Source of the DNA: an uncultured Candidatus Saccharibacteria bacterium
GTDB taxonomy: Bacteria; Patescibacteriota; Minisyncoccia; Phycocordibacterales; UBA9973
Assembly: GCA_964484005.1 (NCBI GenBank)
Contig: CAZADR010000001.1
Location: forward strand, 43,927-107,926
DNA length: 64,000 bases
Direction of reading: 5' to 3'
The notes under the pieces are model-generated. The model ran no database searches. It was not told the origin of the DNA and saw only the letters and a list, made by a program, of their open reading frames with translations. The position numbers were made by a program, and so were the translations under genes. This document shows positions 2,878-58,925 of the stretch, piece after piece. Each line of letters begins with the position of its first letter. Position 1 is the first letter of the stretch.

Positions 2878-4122
2878 ATGACATCAACTTTTGATTTTAT
2901 ATTATATATATTACTTTTTCTGTCTGTTTACGTGCAGGTCTTTTTTTTCGTTACTTTCTTGGAAAATAGGGGAAAAATAGTTATCAGAAAAGGAAAAATC
3001 AACTTGGGGTCTTATCCAGCAGTGACTATTACTGTACCTTGCTGGAATGAAGAAAAAACAGTTTTTAAGACAGTGCAGTCTATTTTGAGTCTAAATTACC
3101 CTAAAGATAAGTTGAATATATTTCTTATAGATGACGGCTCTACTGACAACACCTGGAATGAAATAAAAAAATTTGAAGGATATTCTAATATCAAAATTTT
3201 TCAAAAGAAAAACGGGGGAAAACACACTGCTCTTAATTTTGCCCTAGAAAATACTAAAACAGATTTCTTTGGTTGCTTGGATGCAGATTCTTTTGTGGAC
3301 CAAGAGGCCCTTGTCCGTTTGATGAGTTATTTTGAAAAAGATCCTTCTGTTATGGCTGTGGCTCCTTCTGTGACAGTAGATAGTCCTAAAAACATAGTCC
3401 AGATTGCGCAAAAAGCAGAATACAATATGGGTGTTTATTTTAAGAAAATGCTTGGTTTTTTGGGTGCTATAAATGTGACTCCAGGCCCGCTCACTATTTT
3501 TAGAAAAAAAGTTTTTGATGATTTGGGACCTTATCGTCACGGACACAATACCGAAGACATGGAAATAGCCTATAGGATGCAAAAAAATAATTACAAAATA
3601 GAGCACTGTAATGATGCATATGTTTATACTAATACACCCCTAACCATAGGTAAGCTTTACAAGCAAAGAGTGCGTTGGATTTACGGTTTTATAAACAATA
3701 CTTTTGATTATAGAAATGTTTTATTTAAAAAGGAATATGGCAATTTTGCTCTTTTTACCTTACCGATGGGATTTATTTCAATTGTTTCTGTGGGGTATCT
3801 TTTTGGTAGGGTAGCTTATAATTTAGCAGATTTCATTTATTCAAAATTTGTAGTTTTTAATACCGTTGGTTTTAGCTTTAATTTTAAAAAAATAAGCTTT
3901 GATCCATTTTTTATTAATACCCAAGCTGTATTTTTTCTAGTAATCGTTATTTACGCCCTGGTTTTCTTTGCTATAATTTTTGGTAGAAAAATGACTGAAG
4001 AAAAGAAGTCTTTTTCTTTAGATATTCTTTATTTTTTCCCTGTCTTTAGCCTGGTTGCGCCCTTTTGGCTTTTAAAAGCTGTTATAAATACTGTATTATC
4101 AAAAAAACCATCTTGGAGATAA
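2878..4122 (+). CDS. Processive family-2 glycosyltransferase, membrane-integrated (PgaC/IcaA/NodC/cellulose-synthase-like)
   Basis: Motifs present: VTITVPCWNEE, DDGSTDNT, DADSF, a TED-like segment, and Q(R)VRW (QRVRWIYG). There are multiple C-terminal transmembrane helices. Confidence 0.8.
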   Translation: MTSTFDFILYILLFLSVYVQVFFFVTFLENRGKIVIRKGKINLGSYPAVTITVPCWNEEKTVFKTVQSILSLNYPKDKLNIFLIDDGSTDNTWNEIKKFEGYSNIKIFQKKNGGKHTALNFALENTKTDFFGCLDADSFVDQEALVRLMSYFEKDPSVMAVAPSVTVDSPKNIVQIAQKAEYNMGVYFKKMLGFLGAINVTPGPLTIFRKKVFDDLGPYRHGHNTEDMEIAYRMQKNNYKIEHCNDAYVYTNTPLTIGKLYKQRVRWIYGFINNTFDYRNVLFKKEYGNFALFTLPMGFISIVSVGYLFGRVAYNLADFIYSKFVVFNTVGFSFNFKKISFDPFFINTQAVFFLVIVIYALVFFAIIFGRKMTEEKKSFSLDILYFFPVFSLVAPFWLLKAVINTVLSKKPSWR

Positions 4123-11376: not shown

Positions 11377-11382
11377 TTCTTT

Positions 11383-11631
11383 TTATTTTAATTTAGATTC
11401 TAACTCGTCAACTCTTACTTTTAGTTTATTATGATCTTCATATTTGACTCGAGTTACAACAAAATCATCTATTCTTTTATTTGTACCTTCGAGTTGGTTT
11501 TTAACACCTTTTATTTCTTCTTTAACTTCATTAATTCTTGTATCAATTTTTTCTTCTACCTTAGAAAAACTTCTATTTATTGATTCAAGTAATTCTTTGT
11601 TTGTTATTTCCTTTTCTTTTTTATTAGTCAT
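11383..11631 (-). CDS. Small coiled-coil hypothetical protein
   Basis: ORF only, with charged heptad-like sequence. Confidence 0.3.
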   Translation of the reverse strand: MTNKKEKEITNKELLESINRSFSKVEEKIDTRINEVKEEIKGVKNQLEGTNKRIDDFVVTRVKYEDHNKLKVRVDELESKLK

Positions 11632-11858
11632 TTTATTTATTTTCTTGATTTAATAATTTATGTTTCTTTAAAAAATCCAGAATCGGTTTTCCGCATTTTG
11701 AACAAAAATCTTTATCCGCAAAAAGACCCATGCCAGCCTTTACGGGATCGCCTTCTAATTTCTTTTTGCAAATATCACATTTCCTAACATTAATCCCTAA
11801 AGTATATCACACTCTAAAAGTCTAGTTATCCCCACTTTTTCTCTACATTTCCCTTTGC

Positions 11859-11867
11859 GGGGGGGGG
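11859..11867. repeat. G9 homopolymer tract in the promoter region of the giant surface-fibre gene
   Basis: Nine consecutive G in a roughly 33% GC genome. It lies between a TTGCGG -35-like hexamer (11855-11860) and a TAAAAT -10-like hexamer (11876-11881), 38 nt before the ATG at 11905. Confidence 0.9.
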
Positions 11868-11904
11868 TTATATGTTAAAATATATAGGTTAGCGAAATAT
11901 TAAT

Positions 11905-14900
11905 ATGCTCAAGAAACCATTTATAAAAAGATTACTTTTTTCAAGCTTTTTTGGTTTGTCGTTTTTCTTTGTGTTTTTCTTTTCTGCCGTTAATCCTGTT
12001 TCTGCTTTTGATTTTAATTTTGATCTAAACTCTACTACAATCAAAGCTTCCACTTTGTCTGCCAATTTATCAGAAAATGCTTGGGATTTTTATGTTGTTA
12101 ATGTGGTAGAGCCAACTAATAATGTTTTACAAGAAGTAATTAATTTTTTTCTAGATTCAAATACTTACCAAGTTGTTTTGCCAGAAACTCCACTCCAAAC
12201 AGTTACTTCTTTTTTAAACAATACTTATAACTCTTATAACAATTACATCTTAAGACCAGGCGTAGCAGCTATTGAAAAATCAAATGTAACTTTTACAAAA
12301 ATAACTGACAATATTACAGTACCCAAAATTAGTGTTCCCAAGGTGGGCATGGTAGCAAATGTATCAAGTATTATTGATGGTGTAAACAATTTCAGTAACA
12401 CTCTCTTTTCTCTCTACGACGAATATGTCATTGATCCTTTGGCACAATTGTGGGGAGGGATATTTTTTAATATTTCAAATAATTTAAACAAAGTACCGCC
12501 AACATCGGTAGTAAAAATAGAAACTCCTCCAGCCAAAACAGAGATAGAGCCTAAGCCTCTATCTGGGTCTCCAATAGTTTACCTAAACAATAATCCTTCA
12601 ACCAATCGAGGTCTACAGGGTCCTCAAGGAATACAAGGACCAATGGGGCCACAAGGACCCACTGGCGAGAGAGGTTCATCTGGGAGTGACGGTAATACGA
12701 TAGACACCTCTTCCTTCGTCTCTGAAACTGATTTTGATAATCAAGTAAATGCCCTCTTAAATTCTATTGAAAATGGTCTGTCAGGTTTGTCTGAATCTAT
12801 CTCTGAAGAAGTCAATACAGATTTACTGACAGTAGCAGGCAATGCCACTATCGGTGGAGATTTGATGGTCAATGGGCAAGGAATATTTACCCGAGTTCCC
12901 ACTCTGGCTCATGCCTTCGCTCCTTCATGGCCACTCGGTGTTTCTAATGTTGCCGATGCCACTCTCTACATTAATCCTGCTTCTTCAGTAGCAAGTGGCA
13001 ACTTGATTGGCGCTGCCATAAACGGCACAGTAAAATTCATCGTTGATGCTGACGGAAATGTTTATGCCAATAATATGATCCTAAATGGGAGCGTCACTAG
13101 TGGCGCGACGACTGTTTCCAGTTTGTCGGTGTTGGACAATACTATCCTAGGAGATGCTGGCGTAGATACGATTACGGTAAATGGCAGAATTAATTCTGAT
13201 TTAACCTTTACGACTGACAACACCAATGATATCGGAGCAAGCGGTGTTAACAGAGCTAGGACTGGATATTTTGGTACTTCCATAATTTCTCCTGTAGTCA
13301 ATGCCACCACCGGCGTGCAAATTGCAGGTGCCGCCACGACCGGCACAATCCTGCGTGGCAACGGTACAAATTATGTGCCTACCACCGCCACTTTTGCTGA
13401 TACATACACAGCCAGCAATTTGCTCTATTCCAACGGCGCGAATACTGTTGCCGGTTTAGCGACGGCTAATAGCGGAGTCTTGGTTACTAATTCAACCGGA
13501 GTGCCATCTATTTTAGGTTCTATGACCAACGGTCAATTAGTGGTCGGCTCAACCGGCGCGACTCCTGTTTTGGCAACAATTACCGGTACCACCGATCAAA
13601 TCGTCGTTACTAATGGCGCGGGCACAATTACTCTTTCTATTCCGCAAAGCATTAATACCACTTCTACTCCACAATTTGCCAGATTGGGGGTCGGAGTCGC
13701 GGCGGACGCTACCAATATTCTGACCGCCACCTCCGCTTCCGCCACCGACCTTTCTAAAACTTTAAATATAACTCACACCGGAGCAATTACTGGTACAGGT
13801 TATGCCGGATACTTTACAAAAACTGGAGTATCTACAACAAATGTCGGCCTTTATGCTACTGCAACGGGAGCTACAAATAATTATGCGGCGATATTTGAGA
13901 ACGGCAACGTCGGCATCGGGACGACGAATCCGGGGGCGAAGTTGTCAATCAACACTGATTATTGGAATAACGCATATTTTCCCGCTGGTACGGTTATCGG
14001 TGCATATTTAGGTGCAGCGTATGCAGGATTTTTTGCTAGTGGTGCGGGCGATACTTCTAGAATAACATTAGGAAATGGAGGAACTGGGTATCAGAGTTAT
14101 ATAGAAAATTTAGCGGGAGGAGCTGGTAGTCTTAGTATTGTCAATAACAATGGCCCTGTTTTGTTTAGTGGAACCGGCAACGTCGGCATCGGGACGACGG
14201 CACCAGTTCAAAAACTTGATATGGTGGTTGGGGCGGGAGATGGTACTCAAAATGAAGCTGTTGGTATCCGCTTACGAAATACTTCTGTTGTTGGTAATAC
14301 AAACACTTTACAAATAGGTCTTAATTCTACATTTAATGCTGGTGCAGCACAGCCAGGCTATGGTTACCTTCAATCAGTTTATTGGGGAGGAAGTGTCAAT
14401 GCCCTGATTTTGAATCCTCAAGGTGGTCCAGTTACAGTTGGAACTGCTACTGATTTTAATCCAGGAGGATTTTTAGTAAAGGGAATTACTTTAGTTTCTT
14501 CTCCTACTCGTGCTGGAAATACTTTAATGGGAGGACTAGGTTTTACACATGGAGCAGGATATACACCTATTTCCGCTTCCATTTATGGAATCTATGATAA
14601 ATCTGTATGGTCTCAAGGTGCGGGTTTAGTATTTAATACAGTTTCAGGGGCAGATATTTCAGGTTCATCTGGTGTCGAGAGAATGAGAATTAGCTCAGAC
14701 GGCAACGTCGGCATCGGGACGACGGGGCCAGGGTCTCATCTTCAGATTGACGGTAATATTTCAGCAGCATCTTGGACTACCGATGGTATAGCTTTTGATT
14801 CTAACGCCGCCACTTTCACAGACACCAGTACAGCCGGAGCAGGAACTGTAGCCGTAAGAACCGCTAACAGTTTCGGAGCACCAACTTTCGCATCTACAAA

Positions 14901-15906
14901 CGCAATCACAGTAACTGACGCCTTCACTTTATATGTTCCCAAACCAATCGCTGGAACAAACACCACTATTACCAGAGCCAACTCTGCTTACTTTGAGGGG
15001 AATGTCGGGATTGGTCAAGTAGCACCAGCTTACGCCCTAGACGTCCTAGCCACCGGTACCGGAGTCATTGCTAGATTCAATAGTACCAATGCTACCGGTT
15101 GTACATTAGCTGATGGAGGAACCATCACCTGTACTTCAGATGTCAGAATGAAGAAAAACATAGAAGATATTACTTATGGTCTAGAAACCATCAAAGGTTT
15201 AAGACCCGTCTTATTCAATTGGAAATATGAAGATGATACTACTTCAAAAAACCTCGGTTTCATCGCTCAAGAAGTGGAAGCCCTAGTACCCAAACTCATC
15301 GCTACTGACGAAAACGGCATGAAGTCTTTAAATACCACCGCTATGATTCCTATTTTAACCAAAGCCATACAAGAAATGAATCTAAATCTTGAAGGAGTTG
15401 CAGGTACGATTACTCCGCTCGAAGCCTCTCCTAATGAATCTTTTGTCACTACTTTTTTTGATAATTTATTTAGCAAAGTTACCGTTTGGCTCGCTGATGC
15501 GGGGAATGGAATTGGTAAGATATTTACAACCGAAGTGGAAACCAAAAATCTCTGCGTCTCGGATGATAGCGGAGAAAAAACATGTATTACAAAATCACAG
15601 CTCGATGCCTTACTTTTAAATGCAACCGTCAGCCCTGCACCTGTGCCAGTACCCGAACCAATACCGGACCCTGTTCCAACTCCAACTCCAACTCCAACTC
15701 CTGATCCAACACCATTACCAGATCCTGTACCTGTAGTACCTCCGACATGTACTCTGCCTCAAGTCTTAGATACAACCACGAATACTTGCGTAGATCCCGC
15801 GCCAGTAATTCCGACTTGCACCCTGCCTCAAATTTTAGAAAATAATGTTTGTGTAGATCCTGTACCAACTCCACCTGCTGACACCACACCGCCAGTAACG
15901 CCATAA
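11905..15906 (+). CDS. Giant secreted tail-fibre-like surface protein with a collagen-like Gly-X-Y segment, repeated GNVGIGTT beta-structure units, a C-terminal peptidase_S74 intramolecular-chaperone autoprocessing domain, and a Pro/Thr-rich Cys-containing tail
   Basis: Signal peptide present. GLQGPQGIQGPMGPQGPTGERGSSGSDG is collagen-like. NVGIGTT(N/A/G)P recurs four times. SDVRMKKNIEDITYGLETIKGLRPVLFNW...GFIAQEVEALVP matches the endosialidase/tail-spike chaperone domain (S74). The C-terminus is PAPVPVPEPIPDPVPTPTPTPTPDP plus a TCTLPQ(V/I)L...C(V)DP motif twice. Confidence 0.85.
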   Translation: MLKKPFIKRLLFSSFFGLSFFFVFFFSAVNPVSAFDFNFDLNSTTIKASTLSANLSENAWDFYVVNVVEPTNNVLQEVINFFLDSNTYQVVLPETPLQTVTSFLNNTYNSYNNYILRPGVAAIEKSNVTFTKITDNITVPKISVPKVGMVANVSSIIDGVNNFSNTLFSLYDEYVIDPLAQLWGGIFFNISNNLNKVPPTSVVKIETPPAKTEIEPKPLSGSPIVYLNNNPSTNRGLQGPQGIQGPMGPQGPTGERGSSGSDGNTIDTSSFVSETDFDNQVNALLNSIENGLSGLSESISEEVNTDLLTVAGNATIGGDLMVNGQGIFTRVPTLAHAFAPSWPLGVSNVADATLYINPASSVASGNLIGAAINGTVKFIVDADGNVYANNMILNGSVTSGATTVSSLSVLDNTILGDAGVDTITVNGRINSDLTFTTDNTNDIGASGVNRARTGYFGTSIISPVVNATTGVQIAGAATTGTILRGNGTNYVPTTATFADTYTASNLLYSNGANTVAGLATANSGVLVTNSTGVPSILGSMTNGQLVVGSTGATPVLATITGTTDQIVVTNGAGTITLSIPQSINTTSTPQFARLGVGVAADATNILTATSASATDLSKTLNITHTGAITGTGYAGYFTKTGVSTTNVGLYATATGATNNYAAIFENGNVGIGTTNPGAKLSINTDYWNNAYFPAGTVIGAYLGAAYAGFFASGAGDTSRITLGNGGTGYQSYIENLAGGAGSLSIVNNNGPVLFSGTGNVGIGTTAPVQKLDMVVGAGDGTQNEAVGIRLRNTSVVGNTNTLQIGLNSTFNAGAAQPGYGYLQSVYWGGSVNALILNPQGGPVTVGTATDFNPGGFLVKGITLVSSPTRAGNTLMGGLGFTHGAGYTPISASIYGIYDKSVWSQGAGLVFNTVSGADISGSSGVERMRISSDGNVGIGTTGPGSHLQIDGNISAASWTTDGIAFDSNAATFTDTSTAGAGTVAVRTANSFGAPTFASTNAITVTDAFTLYVPKPIAGTNTTITRANSAYFEGNVGIGQVAPAYALDVLATGTGVIARFNSTNATGCTLADGGTITCTSDVRMKKNIEDITYGLETIKGLRPVLFNWKYEDDTTSKNLGFIAQEVEALVPKLIATDENGMKSLNTTAMIPILTKAIQEMNLNLEGVAGTITPLEASPNESFVTTFFDNLFSKVTVWLADAGNGIGKIFTTEVETKNLCVSDDSGEKTCITKSQLDALLLNATVSPAPVPVPEPIPDPVPTPTPTPTPDPTPLPDPVPVVPPTCTLPQVLDTTTNTCVDPAPVIPTCTLPQILENNVCVDPVPTPPADTTPPVTP

Positions 15907-16020
15907 AAAACATATTTTTGTATCACGAATAGCAGGTTGAACGTCCAAAAACACGGAAAGTAATGATATTTTAACCCCCGTGGGTCGTGATATGGTGCAA
16001 AACTGTGGTATAATATAAAA

Positions 16021-16380
16021 ATGGAAAAAGATGACGAAGTTGAATTACCTACGATTAATTGGCTTCCTCCTGATACCCCTCTGCAACAAACGATCGGAGA
16101 AAGTCGCATAGCGGACGCTTGTCAATATTGTAACTCTAAAAATTTCGTCAAGCGGGGCACTCGCCAGAATCAATATCAAAGTGTCCAGCTTTATTTGTGC
16201 AAAAATGAAGAATGTGGTCGCACTTTTACCGCACAAGACGTGAAAGGCAAACATTTTCCGTTGAATGTGGTGATTGAGGCTATGAGTTATTATAATCTTG
16301 GATTTTCATTAGAAGAAACTTGTAGGATTATAAAAAAGAAATTCAACGTAGCTCCGGATGCTGCGACTCTTGGAAGCTGA
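16021..16380 (+). CDS. Zinc-ribbon plus HTH protein with IS1 InsA-like architecture
   Basis: CQYC-x16-LYLCKNEEC zinc ribbon followed by a helix-turn-helix (VIEAMSYYNLGFSLEETCRII). GC content is about 45% against about 30% in the flanks. It ends at a TGA that is in frame with the next ORF. Confidence 0.55.
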   Translation: MEKDDEVELPTINWLPPDTPLQQTIGESRIADACQYCNSKNFVKRGTRQNQYQSVQLYLCKNEECGRTFTAQDVKGKHFPLNVVIEAMSYYNLGFSLEETCRIIKKKFNVAPDAATLGS

Positions 16381-16416
16381 GTAGACGAATACAAAGAACT
16401 TTGTCGCTATGAACGT

Positions 16417-17283
16417 TTGCGTCCATATGCAATAAAAATGTGCCAGCCAAAAGATACGATTGAAGTCGTCTCTATGGCGCATCGGCAACTTTACCGTTTT
16501 CGTTATCATCGTCCGAAAACCGCCCTAATGTTGACGGAATTTAAAAATCGCAACCTTCGTCGTTTGCAAGAATATTTGAACGCGGTTTCGAGTGAGACAC
16601 CGCACCAATATTTTCAGGACGGTGAGCGCATGAGCGATGTGCGGAGTAAGTTTAGCACCGCAGATATGATTGTAAAATCAAAAAATAATTATGCGAATCG
16701 ATTGGCAAAATTCGTCTTGCAGACGGTTTCTGAAAATAAGGCTCGCCATGAGGCGCTCCAGCGGTTTTTTATTGCGAATGATTCCTGTACGGTGGCGACG
16801 GAAGTGCCGGTGTATATCAGGAGAGAAGATGTGGAACATATGGAAAACGTGCTGAAGTTTAAGGTTGTCGGAGAGAGTGGACTTGAGTTTAAAGGGAAAA
16901 AAGAGGGACAGCTGCCAAAAGGCAATTCAACATCGGCAGCTCTACGCAGCCTACCTCGGCTGCTAACTGGACACATTGATCTTGTGCAGATAAGGAATGG
17001 TCAAGTTCACATTATGGATTACAAGCCGAATGCGGCTAAAGAGCGCCCCATCGAACAGCTCACATGGTATGCGTTAGCGCTTTCACGCCTCACCGGTCTG
17101 CGGCTTTTTGAATTCACTTGCGCCTGGTTTGATGAAAAAGATTATTACCAATTTTTTCCGTTGCATGTGGTAAAAAAATTGCAAACTAAAGCAATAAAAC
17201 CACGGAAGCGTATAATAAACTTTAAAGATGGCACTAAAGTCGAGGTACCGAGGGAAAATCCGGGGAAAGTCATAATTGTTTAA
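16417..17283 (+). CDS. RecB/Cas4-like PD-(D/E)xK nuclease-domain protein
   Basis: The C-terminal half carries GHIDLV (D), MDYK (D-x-K) and QLTWYALAL (QxxxY), in the order typical of RecB-family nuclease domains. It shares a frame with 16021-16380, separated by a single TGA. GC is elevated. Confidence 0.5.
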   Translation: MRPYAIKMCQPKDTIEVVSMAHRQLYRFRYHRPKTALMLTEFKNRNLRRLQEYLNAVSSETPHQYFQDGERMSDVRSKFSTADMIVKSKNNYANRLAKFVLQTVSENKARHEALQRFFIANDSCTVATEVPVYIRREDVEHMENVLKFKVVGESGLEFKGKKEGQLPKGNSTSAALRSLPRLLTGHIDLVQIRNGQVHIMDYKPNAAKERPIEQLTWYALALSRLTGLRLFEFTCAWFDEKDYYQFFPLHVVKKLQTKAIKPRKRIINFKDGTKVEVPRENPGKVIIV

Positions 17284-17818
17284 TTTTATGGATAAAAAAT
17301 GGGATAAAACAAAAAATGAATATGTAGGAGGGTATAAACCATCGGGTAGTTTTGGTAGCGGGAGTTACAAAAAATCGTTTACGCCAAAACGTCCAGTCAA
17401 AACTTTTCGCGATTTGGATGTCTACCAAGGAACCGTGGAATGTTCAGTTTTGATTACAAAAAATATTGCCCCCGCTCTCATCAAGTTGAAATATGCTTAC
17501 GGAGAGCGCTTGAGTGATTGTGCACTCGCCGTTCCGCTTTTCATTGCCGAATCGCACTCGCTCCGTTTTGCAGATTTTGCGCTCGGTGTCGGTTATTTGG
17601 AAAAAGCAATGTCGGCATCGAATAAAATGGTCGTGTATTTGGAACATGCCAAAGGAATTTACGGCGCCAAACTCGACCAAAACCTGATTGAAGATATTAT
17701 CGGGAGGTATGTGAGCTGTCGCATAAAAATGTTTCATTTGGAAAAATCTTGGAAGCGTTTTCGGACAGAATACGGCGACGAGAAAAAGGAAAAAGGAGCA
17801 GGCGGATTTAAATACTAG
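17276..17818 (+). CDS. Four-helix-bundle protein (23S rRNA intervening-sequence protein / Avd-like family) with a G/S/K-rich N-terminal extension
   Basis: FRDLDVYQ...AESHSLRFADFALGVGYLEKAM...YLEHAKGIYG fits the TIGR02436 pattern (FRDL-V-WQ). Confidence 0.55.
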   Translation: MFNFMDKKWDKTKNEYVGGYKPSGSFGSGSYKKSFTPKRPVKTFRDLDVYQGTVECSVLITKNIAPALIKLKYAYGERLSDCALAVPLFIAESHSLRFADFALGVGYLEKAMSASNKMVVYLEHAKGIYGAKLDQNLIEDIIGRYVSCRIKMFHLEKSWKRFRTEYGDEKKEKGAGGFKY

Positions 17819-17829
17819 TTGATTTATTT

Positions 17830-19305
17830 ATGAAGCAAAAATCAATTGTTTTTACCCCAACTTTGTTTTACGAATATGCGATTTGTCCACACTGGATTTG
17901 GCACGATCGTTTCAGCGATCCGAAAGAAAAAGGCGAAATGCCCGAGCTATCTTTGCGGTTGTTTGAACAAGGTGTACTGCACGAAAAAGATTATATAAAA
18001 GACCTGATATTTACTCAAGTTAAAGCAGTTAATTTGAAGGTGGCGTTTACACAGACTATGAGCTTAATGCAAGCAGGTGCAGAGCTCATATATCAAGGAG
18101 TTATCCAATTTGAACAAGATGGCATTTTATATCAAGGCCGTCCCGATTTACTTAAAAAAGTATCGGGAAAATCTAAATTTGGAGATTACTATTACCAACC
18201 GATAGATATTAAATCAACAAAAGAGATAAAAACTGAACATGAATATCAGTTAATTTTTTACGGATTAGTTTTAAAACATGTTCAAGGAATATTCCCCAAT
18301 GAAGCAGCTATTATTAATAAAGATAAAAAAACTGTTTTGTTTTCAATGAGTGAGGAAGAACAACGAAAAACAATAGGGCATATGAAAGAAATTATAGCTG
18401 TTTTAGAGGGTAATAAACCACTCTTGAAATTGGTTTCCAGTTGCAAAGACAGCCCTTGGTATAAAAAATGCGTGTCTGAAGCGGAAGCCAAGAATGACAT
18501 TGCTTTACTATATCATTTGGACTCTCGAGCTTATCCAACCTTACGCGCTTATGGCATTAACACGGTAGCGGAAGCAGCTAATATGGATATTGCCACGCTC
18601 CCTAAAATTCCGTATGCTAGTCGGGAAACCTTGGAGAGAGTCAAGTTGCAAGCAGAGAGCCTTTTGGAAAACAAACTTAAGTGGATAGCCAAACCAGTAT
18701 TATCTAACGCCAAGTTGAAAATCTTTTTTGATATTGAAGGCGATCCACTATTGCAGACTCAATATATGTTTGGTTTTTGGATTTCTGGCGATCCAGAGTT
18801 TAAATATGCTCAAATTGGTCACGTTCGGAAACATAAAGACGAAGGTAAATACTTTCTATACTTTTTAGCCGAAGACCCAAGCGAAGAAGAAATGATGTGG
18901 AAACAATTTTTACAATGGCTGGATATTTTACCTAATGATGATTACGCAATATTTCACTATGCCAAATATGAAAAAATATGGACCCAAAAACTGAAGGAAA
19001 AATATGGCGGGTCCAAAAAGTTCACAGAGTTTCATTCAAAACTATTTGACCTAGAAGATGCACGCAAAGAATCAGTTATCTTTCCTCTTTATTTTTATTC
19101 CATTAAAGACATCGCTAAGTCAAAATTTGTCAATTTTAAGTGGCGACATGAGAAAGCAGGTGGCGCTCAGAGCATCTTTTGGTATGAAAAGTGGTTGGAA
19201 GAAGTGAATTGTGATGTTCTTAATGATATAATTGATTACAATGAAGATGACGTCAGAGCGACCGAGTTTTTCTATCTTTGGTTAAAAAACTATTGCATTT
19301 TTTGA
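17830..19305 (+). CDS. RecB-family nuclease of the TM0106 type with a C-terminal RNase-H-like (YprB-like) domain
   Basis: N-terminal Cys motif YEYAICPHWIWHD. GRPDLL (D), IDIKS (D-x-K) and QLIFYGLVL (QxxxY). The C-terminal FFDIEGDP segment resembles an RNase-H-fold exonuclease motif. Confidence 0.6.
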   Translation: MKQKSIVFTPTLFYEYAICPHWIWHDRFSDPKEKGEMPELSLRLFEQGVLHEKDYIKDLIFTQVKAVNLKVAFTQTMSLMQAGAELIYQGVIQFEQDGILYQGRPDLLKKVSGKSKFGDYYYQPIDIKSTKEIKTEHEYQLIFYGLVLKHVQGIFPNEAAIINKDKKTVLFSMSEEEQRKTIGHMKEIIAVLEGNKPLLKLVSSCKDSPWYKKCVSEAEAKNDIALLYHLDSRAYPTLRAYGINTVAEAANMDIATLPKIPYASRETLERVKLQAESLLENKLKWIAKPVLSNAKLKIFFDIEGDPLLQTQYMFGFWISGDPEFKYAQIGHVRKHKDEGKYFLYFLAEDPSEEEMMWKQFLQWLDILPNDDYAIFHYAKYEKIWTQKLKEKYGGSKKFTEFHSKLFDLEDARKESVIFPLYFYSIKDIAKSKFVNFKWRHEKAGGAQSIFWYEKWLEEVNCDVLNDIIDYNEDDVRATEFFYLWLKNYCIF

Positions 19306-19356
19306 CTTTTAATAAGTGTGGGGGTATACTAAATCCTGTTTTTAATTTTTAACCCA

Positions 19357-20766
19357 ATGCCGAATAAAAAAATAAAAAACTCAAAGAGACCACAGAAGAA
19401 TTGGAAAAAGTTTTGGAAGCTAGGAGCTGATGAATTTAACACTCAGTATTTTGGAGTGAATAAAGACGGCGAGCTCACTGCGACTGAAGGTCATCACATT
19501 TATAATTTAAATGACATAGCTCATAAATTTGGTACACCTCTCCAAGTTATTTTTCCTTTTATTATAGAAGACAGACTCAAGGACTTGATTGGATATTTCC
19601 AAGCCTATATGAAGATTTATGGCTATAAAGGAAAGTTCTTTTATCACTATCCAATGAAGGTAAACCAAAATAAAGAATTTATCCTTCCGCTTCTTTCTGA
19701 AGGCGCAAACTTGGAAGTAACTTCTGCTAACGAGCTTTGGTTGGTAAAAAAGCTTTGGGAAGGAGAAAAATTTAATAGTAAGATTCGAGTACTATGTAAC
19801 GGTCCAAAGACACATCAATATTTAGATTTGATAGAAGAATTACGAGGGAAGGGAATGAACATTGTGCCTATTATAGAATCCAACGAAGAGATAGAGAGAA
19901 TATTAAAACATAAAGGAGATGTAGGGGTGCGAATAGATATGGACATCAAGGCGGACACACACTGGGACAAGAAATTTGACCGTTTTGGTCTTTCAGAAAA
20001 AGATGTTTTGGGTTTGGGTAAAATAAAAAATTTAAAAATACTTCATTATCACCTTGGTTCACAAATAAAAACACAAAAAAGTATTTTAGATGGAATCAAG
20101 CATGCTTTTAGTATTTATACACAACTTCAAAAGACTCATCCTACTTTAGACACTTTGGATATTGGTGGGGGATTTGGTATTCCTTATGAAAAGAAAAAGT
20201 TTTATACCGCTAAGGGTGTTTCTAGTAAAATAATTAAAGTATTAAAAAATTTGTCAGATAAGGCTGGTATTAGACATCCAAACCTAGCAGTAGAATGGGG
20301 ACAATATATAGTGGCTCCTGCACAGATAACGATCTACAAAGTTATTTCTAAAAAAATAATTCCAAAAGCCAACGCCAGAGCTTGGTACATTGTAGATGGA
20401 AGTTTCATGAATGATCTCAAGGATACTTGGGCGATACACCAGAAATGGCACATTATACCTGCAAACAATATGCATGGTGCACTGAAGACCGTGTGGCTCG
20501 CTGGGAGTACTTGTGACTCGGATGATAAATATACAGCTGGAGGAAATTATATTTTAATGCCAAAGCTTCATAATGAAAAAGAAGATCAGCTAGTGGCTAT
20601 CTTTGATACAGGCGCATACCAAGACGGACTCGCTTCTCATCACTGCCTACTCGCAGCACCTCTTAAGATAATAGCTCAGGACGGAATGATAAAAATTGCT
20701 CGTAAGCGTGAAAATGCTGAATCTATTGGTAAACTTTTTGGTTGGACTAATGGAGATCATAAATAA
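19357..20766 (+). CDS. speA: PLP-dependent Orn/DAP/Arg decarboxylase-family enzyme, most like a short biosynthetic arginine decarboxylase
   Basis: FGTPLQVIF, HYPMKVNQN, EVTSANEL, HYHLGSQI...LDIGGGFGIPY and GSTCDSDD motifs match the fold-III decarboxylase / SpeA pattern. Confidence 0.6.
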   Translation: MPNKKIKNSKRPQKNWKKFWKLGADEFNTQYFGVNKDGELTATEGHHIYNLNDIAHKFGTPLQVIFPFIIEDRLKDLIGYFQAYMKIYGYKGKFFYHYPMKVNQNKEFILPLLSEGANLEVTSANELWLVKKLWEGEKFNSKIRVLCNGPKTHQYLDLIEELRGKGMNIVPIIESNEEIERILKHKGDVGVRIDMDIKADTHWDKKFDRFGLSEKDVLGLGKIKNLKILHYHLGSQIKTQKSILDGIKHAFSIYTQLQKTHPTLDTLDIGGGFGIPYEKKKFYTAKGVSSKIIKVLKNLSDKAGIRHPNLAVEWGQYIVAPAQITIYKVISKKIIPKANARAWYIVDGSFMNDLKDTWAIHQKWHIIPANNMHGALKTVWLAGSTCDSDDKYTAGGNYILMPKLHNEKEDQLVAIFDTGAYQDGLASHHCLLAAPLKIIAQDGMIKIARKRENAESIGKLFGWTNGDHK

Positions 20767-20769
20767 AAT

Positions 20770-21243
20770 ATGAAAAATTTTAAACAGCTATTTTCTCACG
20801 ATTCGCGTTCTATCTTTTTTAAGATTTCCTTTTTTTTAGTTATTTTTTTATTTTTTATTTTTTATTTTTCTCAAAAATCTGGAGAGATTAAAATAGTAAA
20901 AATTGCAGGGCAGGAAATAAGGGTAGAATTAGCAAGAACACCAGAAGCTCAACAGCAAGGGTTGAGTGGCAGAGAAAGCTTAGAGGATAATACTGGAATG
21001 TTGTTTGTTTTTGAAAACCCAGGTATATATTATTTTTGGATGAAAGACATGAAATTTCCCATTGACATGATTTGGATTAATGAAGAACAAAAAGTGGTTC
21101 ATATAAAAAAGAATGCAAAACCAGAATCATTTCCTGAAAGTTTTGGAAATGATGAAAATGCAAAATATGTTTTAGAAATTCCTGCCGGTTTTTCTGATAC
21201 GAATAATCTAAAAGAAGGGGACAGTGTTATTTTTACATATTAG
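20770..21243 (+). CDS. DUF192 (COG1430) domain protein with an N-terminal membrane anchor
   Basis: ELARTPEAQQQGLSGRESLEDNTGMLFVF...FWMKDMKFPIDMIW matches the DUF192 signature. Confidence 0.7.
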   Translation: MKNFKQLFSHDSRSIFFKISFFLVIFLFFIFYFSQKSGEIKIVKIAGQEIRVELARTPEAQQQGLSGRESLEDNTGMLFVFENPGIYYFWMKDMKFPIDMIWINEEQKVVHIKKNAKPESFPESFGNDENAKYVLEIPAGFSDTNNLKEGDSVIFTY

Positions 21244-21848: not shown

Positions 21849-21893
21849 ATGGGCTTAACTTGCAGAACAGGGTGAGGGTGTTATAATTTAAGT

Positions 21894-25022: not shown

Positions 25023-25096
25023 TCCGGGGTAGCTCAGCGGTAGAGCGGTCGCCTGTTAAGCGATTGGTCGTAGGTTCGATCCCTACCCCCGGAGCA
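25023..25096 (+). tRNA. tRNA-Asn (anticodon GUU); serves as an integration site
   Basis: TCCGGGGTAGCTCAGCGGTAGAGCGGTCGCCTGTTAAGCGAT...GTAGGTTCGATCCCTACCCCCGGAGCA. The last 14 nt overlap the 3' end of the serine recombinase ORF on the opposite strand. Confidence 0.9.
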
Positions 25097-26642
25097 ATGT
25101 TTTGTATTTAGTGCTATTTTCACTTTTTACCTTACTGGTATTAGGTTTTTTGAGTTCGAATTTATTTTGAGCGTCAATTCTCTCTTGAATCCTCTTTGAA
25201 ATCTTTTTTACTGAACTCTTTAAAACAGTATCAGCTTTCTTGTCTTTCAAGATTAGGTTCGCGAAAATGTGAGATAAGAGCAACCGGCGTTCTTCTGGGC
25301 TTCTCTTTTCGTATATTTCTCTGGCCCGGCGTGCGAGATCCAAGATGTTTATATACAACTCAAAATATTTTGTTTCCTCGTTCTTCAACTTGGTTATTTG
25401 ATTTTGGATTTCAGCTTGCTCGGTGTTTATCTCTTTCTGCTTCGCTTCCCACCTTTCTTGGGTTATTTTTTCGGACAATCTGTCATTGTAGAGTATATCC
25501 AGTTGCCTCTGTAAAGCGTTATAGCGAAGATCTAGGGCTTTAAGAGTATTTTCCTTGTATTCGGATTCTAGCTTATGATCTGCCTTAATTTTGTCCCTTA
25601 TGAGGTCTGCCTCTTTTTCAGTTATATTCTCAAAGAAACGGAATGCTCCTATCAAGGAAACATCCAGATCAGTTTCTTTAGTCATTCCTTTTTGGGAACA
25701 GGGCCGGTTGTGTTTGCAAGAATAATAAACAATTCCTTTTTGTATCTCACCACTTATTGAACCTCCACATTCTCCACACTCAATCATTTTACTGAACTGA
25801 AAGGTATGTCTTTTGTAATGCGGTGATTTACCTCGTGTAAGTGTAAATTGCACCTTATCAAAAAGCTCCTTCGATACCAACGGTTCGTGCTTTCCGTTAT
25901 GCACAAAATCGTTCCATCTTAATAATCCCATATAAAATGGGTCGCGTAGTATATCTTCCAATCTACTCTTTGAGAGCTTACTACCATTTCTAGTTCTTAA
26001 TCCATCCTCATATAATTTTTCCCGCAAACCAGTTAGAGAGTAATTTCTGGTTGCGTAATACTCAAATGCTTTCTTGATAAAGCGACTTTTATCTTCATCT
26101 ATGATATGAATTTTGTGTCCCTTTTCACCGATCGTTTTATATCCTATTGGAGGTTTTGCCGGTAGCCATCCCTGTGCAATTTTTTCTTTCTGACCCTTTT
26201 TAACTTCTTCCGAAAGATTAGAAATATACTTCTTCGCAAGGACTATTTCAATATCCCAACGAAACTTCTCGTCTGATTTGGCGTATCTGTGTATTACTAG
26301 ATTTTGTTTCACGAAATGTATCTGGTGTTTTTCGTCTGCCTCTATCCAATCATTCGCAGTTATTGCGTCCACAAAATTTCTTGTAAGACGATCCACCTTT
26401 TCACAAAGTAAAATAGGAACATCTTTCTTTTTTAGATATTCCATCATTTCCCCGAATATCTTTCTTTGCTTTGCGCCACTAGCAGATTCTGCCGGAGCGA
26501 ATGACCTAACTACCTCAAAACCTTTCCTGTTTGCATATTCTACAAGCAACTTCTCTTGGGAGGGCAAAGAATAACCAGTTTCTTCTTGTTCCTTTGAGGA
26601 TACTCTGCAATAAATTACGCATTTGATTCTAGTTAGATTCAT
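25083..26642 (-). CDS. Large serine recombinase (integrase), copy 1; C-terminus encoded within the tRNA-Asn 3' end
   Basis: VIYCRVSSKEQEETGYSLPSQ catalytic Ser region. DRLTRN. C-terminal zinc-ribbon and coiled-coil typical of large serine recombinases. The stop codon TAG lies at 25083-25085 inside the tRNA. Confidence 0.85.
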   Translation of the reverse strand: MNLTRIKCVIYCRVSSKEQEETGYSLPSQEKLLVEYANRKGFEVVRSFAPAESASGAKQRKIFGEMMEYLKKKDVPILLCEKVDRLTRNFVDAITANDWIEADEKHQIHFVKQNLVIHRYAKSDEKFRWDIEIVLAKKYISNLSEEVKKGQKEKIAQGWLPAKPPIGYKTIGEKGHKIHIIDEDKSRFIKKAFEYYATRNYSLTGLREKLYEDGLRTRNGSKLSKSRLEDILRDPFYMGLLRWNDFVHNGKHEPLVSKELFDKVQFTLTRGKSPHYKRHTFQFSKMIECGECGGSISGEIQKGIVYYSCKHNRPCSQKGMTKETDLDVSLIGAFRFFENITEKEADLIRDKIKADHKLESEYKENTLKALDLRYNALQRQLDILYNDRLSEKITQERWEAKQKEINTEQAEIQNQITKLKNEETKYFELYINILDLARRAREIYEKRSPEERRLLLSHIFANLILKDKKADTVLKSSVKKISKRIQERIDAQNKFELKKPNTSKVKSENSTKYKTLLRG

Positions 26643-27451: not shown

Positions 27452-27623
27452 TTGGGTCTTTTTTTGACCCCGTTTGTTTATTGCGACAAATAAAAAACGG
27501 ATTGTCCCGTAGCAGAATCCGTAGCAAGAGGTTTTGGATCTCTATCTCAAGAGATCGCCAATGTATTGAGTTACTCAGATTATAGCACTTCTTATAATAC
27601 CGGCAAATATGTTATCCACACTA

Positions 27624-30041: not shown

Positions 30042-30201
30042 AATAAGCTGTATCTTAACATTTTGGGCTTAAAAAATATACTGAAATTGGGTTTCTGGCA
30101 AAATCTCAAAAAATTGCAATAAGACAAGAGTAATTATATAATTATTGGATAACTTAATAAGAAAGACCTAAACCCTGTGGATGGCCTTAAAACTATAGGA
30201 T

Positions 30202-30316
30202 ATGGTCGCAAAGTCGGATCACGCATAAAGAACCCATCGCAGGGTTGCGTGATCCGCCATATCGGGAAACCGGTATGAGAGGTTTCGGCCTCTACCTGTG
30301 GTGGGCTTTTTGTTTT
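30202..30316 (+). ncRNA. Candidate structured RNA element A (unknown family), ending in a U-tract 12 nt before the ATG at 30328
   Basis: Nested hairpins ggatcacgc/gcgtgatcc and aaccc/gggtt, a GAAA-tetraloop hairpin cgg-gaaa-ccg, and agagg/cctct, followed by gggctttttgtttt. It is homologous to element B at 37884-37999, with compensatory substitutions in each stem. Confidence 0.35.
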
Positions 30317-33680: not shown

Positions 33681-35345
33681 TTAATACGCTAAAAGTGACT
33701 TTATTTCAGCCAATGCTATACTAGGAAAAGGATATTCTTCGAGCCAATTTATAGTTCGAAAGTCGTCCACAATACCGAGCAATGTTTTGTATTTATAGTC
33801 AAAATCAGACTTTTGTATTGGAGATACAAGGCTTTTTTGTAGTTCGTAGACTTCATTTAGCTTAGGAATCCATTCAAGCAGATATTTGCATGCTAAATTG
33901 TAATTTGGCTTTATTTCATTTACGTTTTGTGCGAAGTTCGTAAATAATTGAGCAAACAATAACCTCTTTTCATCTGTAAGTGCTTGCTCGTAAATTTCTT
34001 TAGCCTTGAAAGCTAATTCGTGGATTATTAAACGCAACTCTTGGTAATCATCGCTTTGGCTAACAACTTTTTCAAGCGTAGATTCAAGGGCATCTTCTTC
34101 AGTTTTACATTCAGCAATCTTTCTTTCGCAATATTCAAGTGGTACTTCTTTGTTTATTGTTGCCTCAAAATATTTATCTTTCTGTTTTCTTATGCTTGTG
34201 AGTAGCCCATTCAGTCTTTGAATTTCAGTTTCCCTTAACTTCACATTCTCAGCATTTTCTTCCAAGATAATTCCTTCAATCCATTTTAGTACCGCTTCAT
34301 TCTTAGGGGCTATTTTAAAGAATACGGGGTCTACCTGCTTTTCTACTTCTTCCTCCTTGATATAGGTCTTTTTGGTGCAATGACGAGATTTTAAGTGGTT
34401 ATTACAATGTCCATAAAGAATACCTTTTTGTGTTTCCCAGCTCAATACTCCGCCACAACCATCACAAAAGATTTTTCCTTGAAATAAATAATTGTGCTTG
34501 GTGGTAATAACATTTTTACCTCTTCTTTTAAGAACACTTTGTGCTTTCTCAAATAAGTCTTTGGTAATTAAAGGCTTGTGTTTTGCTGGGTATATTTCAC
34601 CTTTCCATTTCATTTTGCCATAGTAGAATGGGTCTTGAAGTAATTCATAGATTCTACTTTGTAAAACTTTATTTCCATTTGTTGAACGAAGCCCCGTTTT
34701 ATACATTTCATCCTCAAGACTTTGTATAGAATAGTTTCCCGTAGCATATAGCTCAAACATTTTTCTAATATGCGGAGCAACCCCATCATCAATCACATGT
34801 ATTTTGTGTCCTTTGTCCCCAATAGTTTTATATCCAGTTGGTGGTTTGGTTGGCAACCATCCTTGTGCTATTTTTTCTTTCTGCCCCTTTTTCACTTCTT
34901 CGGAAAGGTTAGCTATATATTTCTTTGCAAGAACAATCTCAATATCCCAACGAAATTTTTCGTCCGATTTGGCATACTTGTGTATTACAAGGTTCTGCTT
35001 AACAAAGTGAAGCTGTCTTTCTTCATTAGCCTCAATCCAATCATTTGCTACGACTGCTTCCTTGAGGTTTCTGGTGAGTCGGTCAACTTTTTCACACAAA
35101 AGAATTTGAATATTATTTTTTCCCATATAGCCCATCATTTCAGCAAAGATTTTTCTTTGTTTTGTTCCACTTGCAGATTCTGCAACAGAAAAAGGTTTTG
35201 CCACTTCAAAACCTTTTCTATTTGCATATTCAATTAGTAATTTTTCTTGCGAGGGAAGCGAGTACCCCGTATCCTCTTGTTCTTTTGATGATACACGGCA
35301 ATAAATAACGGCTTTATTCTTTGTGTTTTTTATTTGAGTTTTCAT
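33681..35345 (-). CDS. Large serine recombinase (integrase), copy 2, full length
   Basis: VIYCRVSSKEQEDTGYSLPSQ...DRLTRN, roughly 60-70% identical to copy 1 over the catalytic domain. An internal site at 33777-33795 repeats the copy-1/tRNA junction sequence. Confidence 0.85.
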   Translation of the reverse strand: MKTQIKNTKNKAVIYCRVSSKEQEDTGYSLPSQEKLLIEYANRKGFEVAKPFSVAESASGTKQRKIFAEMMGYMGKNNIQILLCEKVDRLTRNLKEAVVANDWIEANEERQLHFVKQNLVIHKYAKSDEKFRWDIEIVLAKKYIANLSEEVKKGQKEKIAQGWLPTKPPTGYKTIGDKGHKIHVIDDGVAPHIRKMFELYATGNYSIQSLEDEMYKTGLRSTNGNKVLQSRIYELLQDPFYYGKMKWKGEIYPAKHKPLITKDLFEKAQSVLKRRGKNVITTKHNYLFQGKIFCDGCGGVLSWETQKGILYGHCNNHLKSRHCTKKTYIKEEEVEKQVDPVFFKIAPKNEAVLKWIEGIILEENAENVKLRETEIQRLNGLLTSIRKQKDKYFEATINKEVPLEYCERKIAECKTEEDALESTLEKVVSQSDDYQELRLIIHELAFKAKEIYEQALTDEKRLLFAQLFTNFAQNVNEIKPNYNLACKYLLEWIPKLNEVYELQKSLVSPIQKSDFDYKYKTLLGIVDDFRTINWLEEYPFPSIALAEIKSLLAY

Positions 35346-35521: not shown

Positions 35522-35580
35522 GTTCCAATTTTATCATACTGGACTTTTCTATACAACCAAAGTTATCCACATTTACCTTA

Positions 35581-37578: not shown

Positions 37579-37883
37579 TTCTAGATTGTATTACAAAAAG
37601 TTCTAAAATCCCACCATTTTTCAGATGAGTATATTCGGTGTATCCTCTTTCATTTGGGTGTCCTCCCCCCGTACCCCTTATCAAATAAGAATATTACTAA
37701 TAGTAAATATTAAAATATAGATGTCGTAATGTAAGCTGTATTTGCTTATAGAAAGGCTATAACAACCTCTTTAATGGTCTATAAACACGCTATAAACCCT
37801 TATTGATGGTAAATTTATAGAAAGGTGCTATTATTGTTTTATAACTTAATATAAGAGTAGCCTAAACTTTTGTAGACAAAAGC

Positions 37884-37999
37884 ATGGTGAACGAAGTCAG
37901 GTAATGCATAAAAAACCCTTCATGGGGTCGCATTACCTGCCGTACAGGGAAACTTGTATGAGAGACTTAGGTCTCTACCCGTGAGGGGCTTTTTGTTTG
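37884..37999 (+). ncRNA. Candidate structured RNA element B, homolog of element A
   Basis: Same architecture as A with covarying stems: aggtaatgc/gcattacct, cagg-gaaa-cttg, agagac/gtctct, then gggctttttgtttg. Confidence 0.35.
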
Positions 38000-44045: not shown

Positions 44046-44097
44046 AATTGTATTTATTAATTTGCATGTACTTCTAATTTTTTGATATAATAAACTT

Positions 44098-49804: not shown

Positions 49805-49840
49805 CAAAACCCCATCTTTACAGATGGGGTTTTGTTTGTT
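49805..49840 (+). terminator. Rho-independent terminator
   Basis: aaaaccccatct-ttaca-gatggggtttt followed by gtttgtt. Confidence 0.55.
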
Positions 49841-49851
49841 ATAATAGTCCA

Positions 49852-52014: not shown

Positions 52015-52050
52015 CTTTTTTTAAAGAAGTTTTTGTGATAAAATAGGGTT

Positions 52051-58866: not shown

Positions 58867-58925
58867 GGGTTTATTATATCAAAAAATGGGTTTTTGTTGC
58901 TAAAAAAACATGTTATAATGTAGGT

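Follow-up and report, generated by a model that had tools for sequence, protein, structure and literature searches.

In T. pallidum, the promoters of the tpr paralogues, tprL, and tp0126 have poly-G tracts whose length alters transcription; at tprL, G9 predominates and lengths from G7 to G11 are found in a minority of molecules (PMC7864442). This family is the closest overall analogue of the locus described here, where a run of nine G precedes a gene for a predicted secreted fibre. Both systems have poly-G runs of about 7–11 residues in the promoters of genes for putative surface proteins (tprE/G/J, tprL, and tp0126 in T. pallidum), both occur in uncultivable organisms with reduced genomes, and in both each paralogue has one tract of its own; the two fibre paralogues reported below have G9 and G8 at the same position. 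However, measurements in T. pallidum cover both the heterogeneity in length and the dependence of promoter activity on it, whereas the tract lengths in the fibre promoters are known from consensus sequences. Furthermore, the Tpr porins and the S74 collagen-like fibre are unrelated proteins, and a pathogen is compared here with environmental Patescibacteria.

A similar arrangement is found in N. meningitidis, where a homopolymer lies between, or overlaps, the −35 and −10 elements of the surface-protein genes porA (poly-G), opc, and fetA (poly-C). Tract length alters the transcription of porA and opc, and it sets the transcription level of all three genes (PMC2791445, PMC7864442). The fibre promoter differs from these examples in that its −35 element is doubtful (3/6 matches, not conserved), the promoter is of the extended −10 type, and the 17-nt spacer state was never seen among the homologues. 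A third comparison is offered by the fim genes of Bordetella, where the homopolymer is situated between an upstream regulator site and the −10 element, so that slippage alters the spacing of the two. The C-stretch in the fim2/fim3/fimX promoters of Bordetella pertussis was reportedly described by Willems et al. in EMBO J in 1990. Like the fim genes, the fibre genes are paralogues, here for probable surface filaments, and they share a conserved box, G run, and −10 element in the same layout, but the distance from the box to the −10 element varies in the fibre family (27–43 nt).

At the protein level, the nearest described systems are phage tail fibres and tailspikes. A Peptidase_S74 domain combined with a collagen-like stretch is typical of trimeric phage fibres of the endosialidase type, in which S74 is a self-cleaving chaperone. 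The fibre described here has a C-terminal S74 domain (E = 2.7e-14) and a collagen-like stretch as well. Unlike a phage fibre, it is encoded on the chromosome between tgt and a decarboxylase gene with no adjacent phage genes, and it has a predicted signal peptide at its N-terminus and a Pro/Cys-rich tail after S74. Patescibacteria (also known as the Candidate Phyla Radiation, CPR) are ultra-small bacteria with reduced genomes, which are mostly uncultured and thought to live attached to hosts. To our knowledge, essentially nothing is known about how they regulate their surface structures. A full-text search of a paper collection retrieved no paper in which phase variation or a homopolymeric switch is described for Patescibacteria themselves; co-occurrences of the terms were in passing or concerned other organisms.

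The fibre gene and its chromosomal setting

The window, that is, the whole stretch of 64 kb that was analyzed, contains the following features of the fibre locus.

11377–19356, no strand: accessory island of about 8 kb, flanked by tgt and the Orn/Arg decarboxylase gene
11824–11835, plus strand: upstream box AGTTATCCCCAC, which resembles a DnaA box; 41 nt from its TTATCCCCA core to the −10 hexamer
11855–11860, plus strand: −35-like hexamer TTGCGG, read directly; 15 nt to the −10 hexamer
11859–11867, plus strand: G9 homopolymer, read directly; spans roughly −29 to −21 relative to the predicted start site
11868–11886, plus strand: conserved block TTATATGTTAAAATATATA, containing the TG of an extended −10 element (11873–11874) and TAAAAT (11876–11881)
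11888, plus strand: predicted transcription start, placed at the seventh base past the −10 hexamer; 5'UTR of about 17 nt
11905–15906, plus strand: fibre gene, an ORF of 1333 aa and the longest ORF in the window
11905–12006, plus strand: predicted signal peptide (aa 1–34, ending ...NPVSA before FD), with a hydrophobic N-terminus and an AxA-like site read from the translation
12610–12693, plus strand: collagen-like G-X-Y stretch (aa 236–263; 9 triplets); Pfam Collagen, E = 3.5e-4, 20.7 bits, below the cut-off of 27.2 bits, with the triplets visible in the translation
15136–15297, plus strand: Peptidase_S74 intramolecular chaperone (aa 1078–1131); PF13884, E = 2.7e-14, 53.6 bits, above the gathering cut-off of 22 bits

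Besides these domains, the fibre has a long region rich in Thr, Gly, and Ala, in which the motif GNVGIGTT is repeated. Its start codon at 11905 is supported by an N-terminus conserved with that of a fibre from another genome (58% identity over residues 1–103; locus L012, see below). Past S74, the chain goes on with a segment rich in Pro and with two repeats that contain Cys (PTCTLPQ(V/I)L...C VDP; 15600–15903, aa ~1235–1333). Normally, S74 domains are C-terminal or nearly so and are removed by cleavage, which makes this Pro/Cys-rich tail unusual. No solved structure matched the fibre by sequence. The predicted signal peptide, the collagen-like stretch, and S74 suggest that the protein is secreted and probably located at the cell surface. 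The signal-peptide-like N-terminus, the G-X-Y triplets, S74, and the location in an accessory island together point to a gene for a surface or interaction product. It is not the only giant surface fibre of this organism, as the preliminary description had assumed, because a paralogue of 1377 aa (P0002) is encoded elsewhere on the same contig, outside the window; it is 51% identical over the C-terminal 400 aa.

The fibre gene resides in a chromosomal setting with genes for a ProRS-like tRNA synthetase (assigned by synteny), MreB, MreC, and TGT upstream, and for the Orn/Arg decarboxylase, a DUF192 protein, and RNase P RNA downstream; the window also has three tRNAs and two LOOT RNAs. In the nearest relatives according to TGT (87–91% identity; L072, L074, and L077), the decarboxylase and DUF192 genes, which in the window are found at 19357–21243, come immediately after tgt, and the fibre gene is absent. 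The region 11377–19356 thus is an accessory island. In addition to the fibre gene, it contains two small ORFs on the minus strand and nuclease-like genes, among them those for a PD-(D/E)XK nuclease and a Cas4-like/RNase_H_2 protein, as well as several ORFs without a family match. At locus L012 the fibre gene alone is inserted at the tgt site. Homologues carry the names Paceibacterota, Nomurabacteria, or Patescibacteria. A look-up of a neighboring 82-aa ORF returned the same contigs again and nothing further, and mutS or mutL were not found among the window ORFs scanned. Elsewhere in the window, LOOT RNA (Rfam RF03000, 74–76 bits) occurs twice on the plus strand (30165–30293 and 37859–37976), flanking 7.5 kb with a gene for a large serine recombinase (33681–35345, minus strand); this stretch may be a mobile element with the RNA genes as its boundaries. 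The 3' end of tRNA-Asn (25023–25095) shares 13 nt with another gene for a large serine recombinase (25083–26642, minus strand), which suggests an element integrated at this tRNA gene.

Architecture of the fibre promoter and its homologues

The G9 homopolymer at 11859–11867, already reported in the preliminary description, is read directly from the sequence. It is embedded in CCCTTTGC-GGGGGGGGG-TTATATGTTAAAATATATAGG, and the longer reading up to the fibre start is ...CATTTCCCTTTGC-GGGGGGGGG-TTATATGTTAAAATATATAGGTTAGCGAAATATTAAT-ATG. No other run of more than six G or C exists in the 64-kb window, where the next-longest are five G6 (23373, 44154, 48455, 48871, and 52795) and two C6 runs. The GC content of the window is 35.6% instead of the value near 33% given initially, and 0.016 runs of at least nine G are expected in 64 kb from the base composition. 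This low expectation and the recurrence of the run at the same promoter position in homologues led us to reject chance as its origin. With nine residues, the tract has the length associated with slipped-strand mispairing (about 7–8 or more G/C). All five assemblies that cover the tract contain G9 (the window, ENA ERZ27247817 and ERZ27247828, Logan ERR3094292 and ERR3094302); they are consensus sequences of a single clone and 99.99–100% identical over 5–7.5 kb. The tract of the paralogue is G8 in three of three assemblies, again consensus sequences of this clone. Uniform lengths in consensus assemblies of one clone are a weak test of switching and say little either way. As the modal G9 of T. 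pallidum coexists with minority lengths, a uniform consensus is no argument against switching. Some contigs break at the fibre genes. The per-run assemblies L002 and L003 end inside the window gene, around 13927–13931 in the repetitive Thr/Gly-rich region, and the paralogue contig L008 begins 28 nt before the ATG, with its break 19 nt past the G8 tract. These breaks could stem from coverage, from repeats, or from heterogeneity of the tract.

The core promoter geometry was described correctly in the first place, with TTGCGG at 11855–11860, TAAAAT at 11876–11881, a 15-nt spacer between them (11861–11875), and the ATG at 11905. However, the −10 element had been taken for a plain TAAAAT. The TG at 11873–11874 had been overlooked, and TGTTAAAAT at 11873–11881 is an extended −10 element (TGtTAAAAT), which begins a few bases after the tract; G9 ends 8 nt before the hexamer. 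TTGCGG agrees with TTGACA at three of six positions. A scan for consensus promoters, which demands a spacer of 16–18 nt, left the fibre promoter uncalled, as the hexamer score and the 15-nt spacer fell outside its limits. In the window, 6.1 kb of intergenic DNA contain the motif TGNTANAAT 18 times, as compared to 11 times in 57.9 kb of coding DNA, which is an approximately 15-fold intergenic enrichment, and seven extended −10 sites are located exactly 6 nt ahead of a start codon. Thus, the extended −10 element is the dominant promoter signal here, and the seven sites calibrate the distance from the −10 element to the transcription start. These observations support the earlier proposal that the tract belongs to a promoter: it appears to be part of a real one, directly 5' of a conserved extended −10 element and upstream of a predicted start site. 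No consistent −35 element (TTG at 16–18 nt) emerged from a comparison of the 29 extended −10 sites in the window. A few window promoters do have TTGCAx or TTTACx 16–18 nt from the −10 element. In sigma-70 promoters, an extended −10 element normally relaxes the need for a −35 element and can work without one.

The sites of the leaderless type (TGnTAnAAT) are situated at 16006–16014, 21879–21887, 44083–44091, 49837–49845, 52036–52044, 58911–58919, and, on the minus strand, 58873–58881. This pattern would imply that leaderless mRNAs are widespread in the organism. The fibre-family genes are leadered, with 15–33 nt between the −10 element and the ATG. Near the fibre promoter, a small ORF for a zinc-ribbon protein (CxxC...CxxC, about 53 aa; 11633–11794, minus strand) begins 6 nt past a minus-strand extended −10 element, TGATATACT, at 11801–11809 (plus-strand coordinates). 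The codon at the leaderless position of this ORF is ATT, not ATG, and the first in-frame ATG would drop the first CxxC. A role of the complementary C9 in this divergent promoter was considered and rejected, because the tract lies about 50 nt upstream of TGATATACT and a divergent gene is missing in the other family members.

The pattern Gn-(T/A)(T/A)ATATGTTAAAATATA is common to four homologous fibre promoters, with n = 9, 8, 5, and 10.

Window: G9; 8 nt to the −10 hexamer; TTGCGG; spacer of 15 nt
Paralogue, locus L005: G8; 8 nt to the −10 hexamer; TTGCGG; spacer of 14 nt
Orthologue, locus L012: G5 after T9; 8 nt to the −10 hexamer; no −35-like hexamer, no spacer
Distant homologue, locus L079: G10; 7 nt to the −10 hexamer; TTGGCG; spacer of 16 nt

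The upstream region of the paralogue reads cTTGC-G8-TTATATGTTAAAATATAaAGG. The orthologue, which has 1402 aa, is encoded in a GTDB genome (CAZKJE010000001.1) in the syntenic arrangement MreB-MreC-TGT-fibre, and its promoter reads T9-G5-TTATATGTTAAAATATAT without TTGC. The T9 before G5 (positions 3950–3963 of L012) is an unusual homopolymer for a locus of 44% GC and could be an alternative slippery tract. The distant homologue (P0015, 813 aa) stems from Logan run ERR1762286 and a locus of 50% GC; its promoter is TTATCCCCAC-N13-G10-AATATGTTAAAATATAT. The first 17 nt of the conserved block (TTATATGTTAAAATATA) are identical in the window, the paralogue, and the orthologue, and the distant homologue differs at the first two bases (AA for TT). 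Around this block, the 5'UTR and the upstream DNA of the window have diverged from those of the paralogue and the orthologue to the point that they are not alignable, and the fibre proteins behind the G-run promoters are about 40–60% identical over partial lengths. Three further promoters of the family (L024, L031, and L032) share the upstream box and a TG(T/G)TAAAATATA block but have no G run, which indicates that the run is an add-on and not a core recognition element.

The G run is a heritable feature of one subfamily of fibre promoters. A G or C run of at least seven upstream of the fibre gene was found at none of 53 GTDB loci with fibre homologues, among which only L012 shares the conserved block; the same holds for the roughly 45 such loci other than the promoters compared here. 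These loci give no support to linking poly-G with S74 fibres in Patescibacteria at large. Scans of JGI metagenomes and IMG/VR for GGGTTATATGTTAAAATATA returned unrelated G3 contexts only, the G5+ pattern had no match in IMG/VR, and a search with the N-terminal protein sequence was swamped by phage collagen-like proteins and retrieved no orthologues. Within the subfamily, G5, G8, G9, and G10 are found, and not the uniform G9 that the preliminary description had named as evidence against a switch. The run has been kept long (8–10) at three strongly diverged loci while its length changed repeatedly. A neutral run of G8–G10 should have decayed over the divergence seen in the proteins, so the run appears to be retained by selection. 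A tract that is retained, variable in length, and dispensable fits the pattern of a contingency tract.

The box upstream of the tract has the consensus AGTTATCC(A/C)CA(C)TTTT and resembles the DnaA box (TTATNCACA). In the form AGTTATCC(A/C)CA it is present upstream in seven of seven fibre-family promoters, in inverted orientation in the paralogue and the orthologue. Reverse-oriented boxes cluster 27–29 nt from the −10 element (in the paralogue, the orthologue, and two unrelated promoters of the window), and forward-oriented boxes are found at 19 to 43 nt. In both the paralogue and the orthologue, 27 nt separate the TGNGNATAA core from the −10 element although the intervening sequence differs (TTGCG8 as opposed to T9G5). 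This equal spacing hints at a constraint rather than free slippage. The inverted orientation relative to the paralogue raised the question of an invertible promoter, which was rejected: counting both strands, the window has a single TTATCCCCA, so there are no flanking inverted repeats. More generally, the box precedes extended −10 promoters at many loci of Patescibacteria (L005, L009, L010, L012, L013, L017, L022, L024, L028, L031, L032, L048, L049, L055, L057, and L079; in the window at 11824–11835, 27612–27620, and 35563–35571), and the density of TTATNCACA in intergenic DNA is about 3.5 times that in coding DNA. The window and L017 have 21 identical bases in common (AGTTATCCCCACTTTTTCTCT). 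No literature on this box motif was found.

Possible roles of the G tract

We propose that G9 modulates fibre transcription by slippage, and consider the chances of this being its function to be even. In this scenario, a slippage-prone homopolymer would lie inside the promoter of a gene for a secreted fibre of the trimeric type. The extended −10 element TGtTAAAAT would be the main driver of this promoter, and the G run would separate it from the weak −35-like TTGC and from the DnaA-box-like AGTTATCCCCAC. Gain or loss of one G by replication slippage would then shift and rotate these upstream elements relative to the −10 element, and fibre transcription would be altered in a heritable and reversible manner. 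As the paralogue has its own G8 copy, the two fibres could vary independently. Both high-frequency slippage at this site and an effect of tract length on transcription are what we infer from the comparisons above. A surface-type fibre in a variable island belongs to a gene class that is typically under contingency control. Because an extended −10 element can work without a −35 element, volume control is likelier than a clean on/off switch, and graded rather than all-or-none control should be expected. On the other hand, TTGCGG matches the consensus at half of its positions and is not kept in the orthologue, and as the extended −10 promoters of this genome lack a consistent −35 element, a change in tract length might have little effect. 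A more elaborate form of the proposal would be a conserved composite promoter of Patescibacteria, consisting of box, poly-G, and extended −10 element, which drives accessory fibre genes for host contact and in which a contingency tract re-phases a box-bound regulator, possibly DnaA, against the −10 element, so that the fibre paralogues switch stochastically and independently; we regard this version as distinctly unlikely. Were it true, phase variation would be described for the first time in the Candidate Phyla Radiation, and the display of a fibre would be tied to a conserved and previously undescribed promoter element.

Alternatively, the G run could be static, for example a stretch of rigid spacer DNA or a G-rich site with a fixed structural or regulator-binding role, and the lengths 5, 8, 9, and 10 would reflect slow evolution. 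This explanation is possible, albeit on the unlikely side. Each of the four G-run promoters has at least five G abutting the conserved block, the paralogue and the orthologue maintain the same distance from box to −10 element despite their unlike sequences, and the consensus length is the same in all assemblies of the clone. However, a fixed recognition element would be expected to have a fixed length, and three promoters of the family with the same box and the same −10 element do without the run, which thus is dispensable. Moreover, runs of G8–G10 are intrinsically unstable in all bacteria tested (PMC7864442).

The preliminary description had pointed to a stricter model, which has a precedent in porA (PMC7864442). 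In this model, TTGCGG is the −35 element, G9 imposes a non-permissive spacer of 15 nt, and two additional G (G11) would restore the optimal 17 nt and turn the gene on. The geometry is as described, three of the four G-run promoters have TTGC or TTGGC ahead of the run, and some promoters of this genome do combine TTGCAx or TTTACx with a spacing of 16–18 nt. Still, this model is doubtful and appears unlikely to us. The hexamer matches at 3/6 positions, was not called by the scan, and is missing from the orthologue; the 29 extended −10 sites of the window have no consistent −35 element; and the spacers seen are 14, 15, and 16 nt but never 17 nt. An extended −10 element normally relaxes the need for a −35 element in any case. 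The broader proposal, according to which slippage re-spaces whatever acts upstream of the −10 element, is better supported than the −35/−10 model. Of the original idea of a stochastic switch in front of the fibre gene, the location in a promoter, the predicted secretion of the fibre, and the differences in tract length hold up, whereas a mechanism based on the TTGCGG spacer is weak.

The tract might also be a slippage-prone leftover that changes in length with no consequence for expression. Tolerance of extended −10 promoters to upstream changes would be in line with such neutrality, but G8–G10 have been kept at the same promoter position at three loci whose proteins and flanks have strongly diverged, and we consider this explanation improbable. 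Far less probable still is a role of the run as one arm of a terminator or attenuator hairpin, or as part of a structured RNA or 5'UTR element. A scan did return four overlapping terminator-like matches at 11847–11868, made of CCC/GGG and G-T pairs. However, the four homologous regions fold no better than shuffled sequences (z = +1.07, +0.51, −0.93, and +0.30), the paralogue and the orthologue lack the C-rich partner or have it inverted, there was no Rfam match even at E ≤ 1, and the tract lies upstream of the conserved −10 element and so probably is not transcribed; the fold scores, the unconserved partner, and the lack of Rfam matches effectively refute this reading. Finally, the chance of a sequencing or assembly artefact, such as the poly-G of two-colour chemistry, is negligible, since nothing more than the general tendency of some sequencing platforms to emit poly-G speaks for it, and the tract is contig-internal with identical flanks in five assemblies from two assembly pipelines and has homologous G runs in unrelated datasets (L012 and L079).

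Implications for Patescibacteria

The proposed modulation of fibre transcription by slippage belongs to a classical class of mechanisms that would be new for this phylum, and the tract is a credible but unproven candidate for a slippage switch. If reads proved to be uniform in tract length, the run would be a conserved promoter feature of modest interest. As it stands, a poly-G tract of 8–10 residues in front of paralogous genes for predicted secreted fibres provides a concrete and testable hypothesis. Confirmation would extend contingency loci to a phylum of environmental episymbionts, would explain part of the heterogeneity of fibre genes and strains in CPR populations, and would provide a marker for bet-hedging at the population level.
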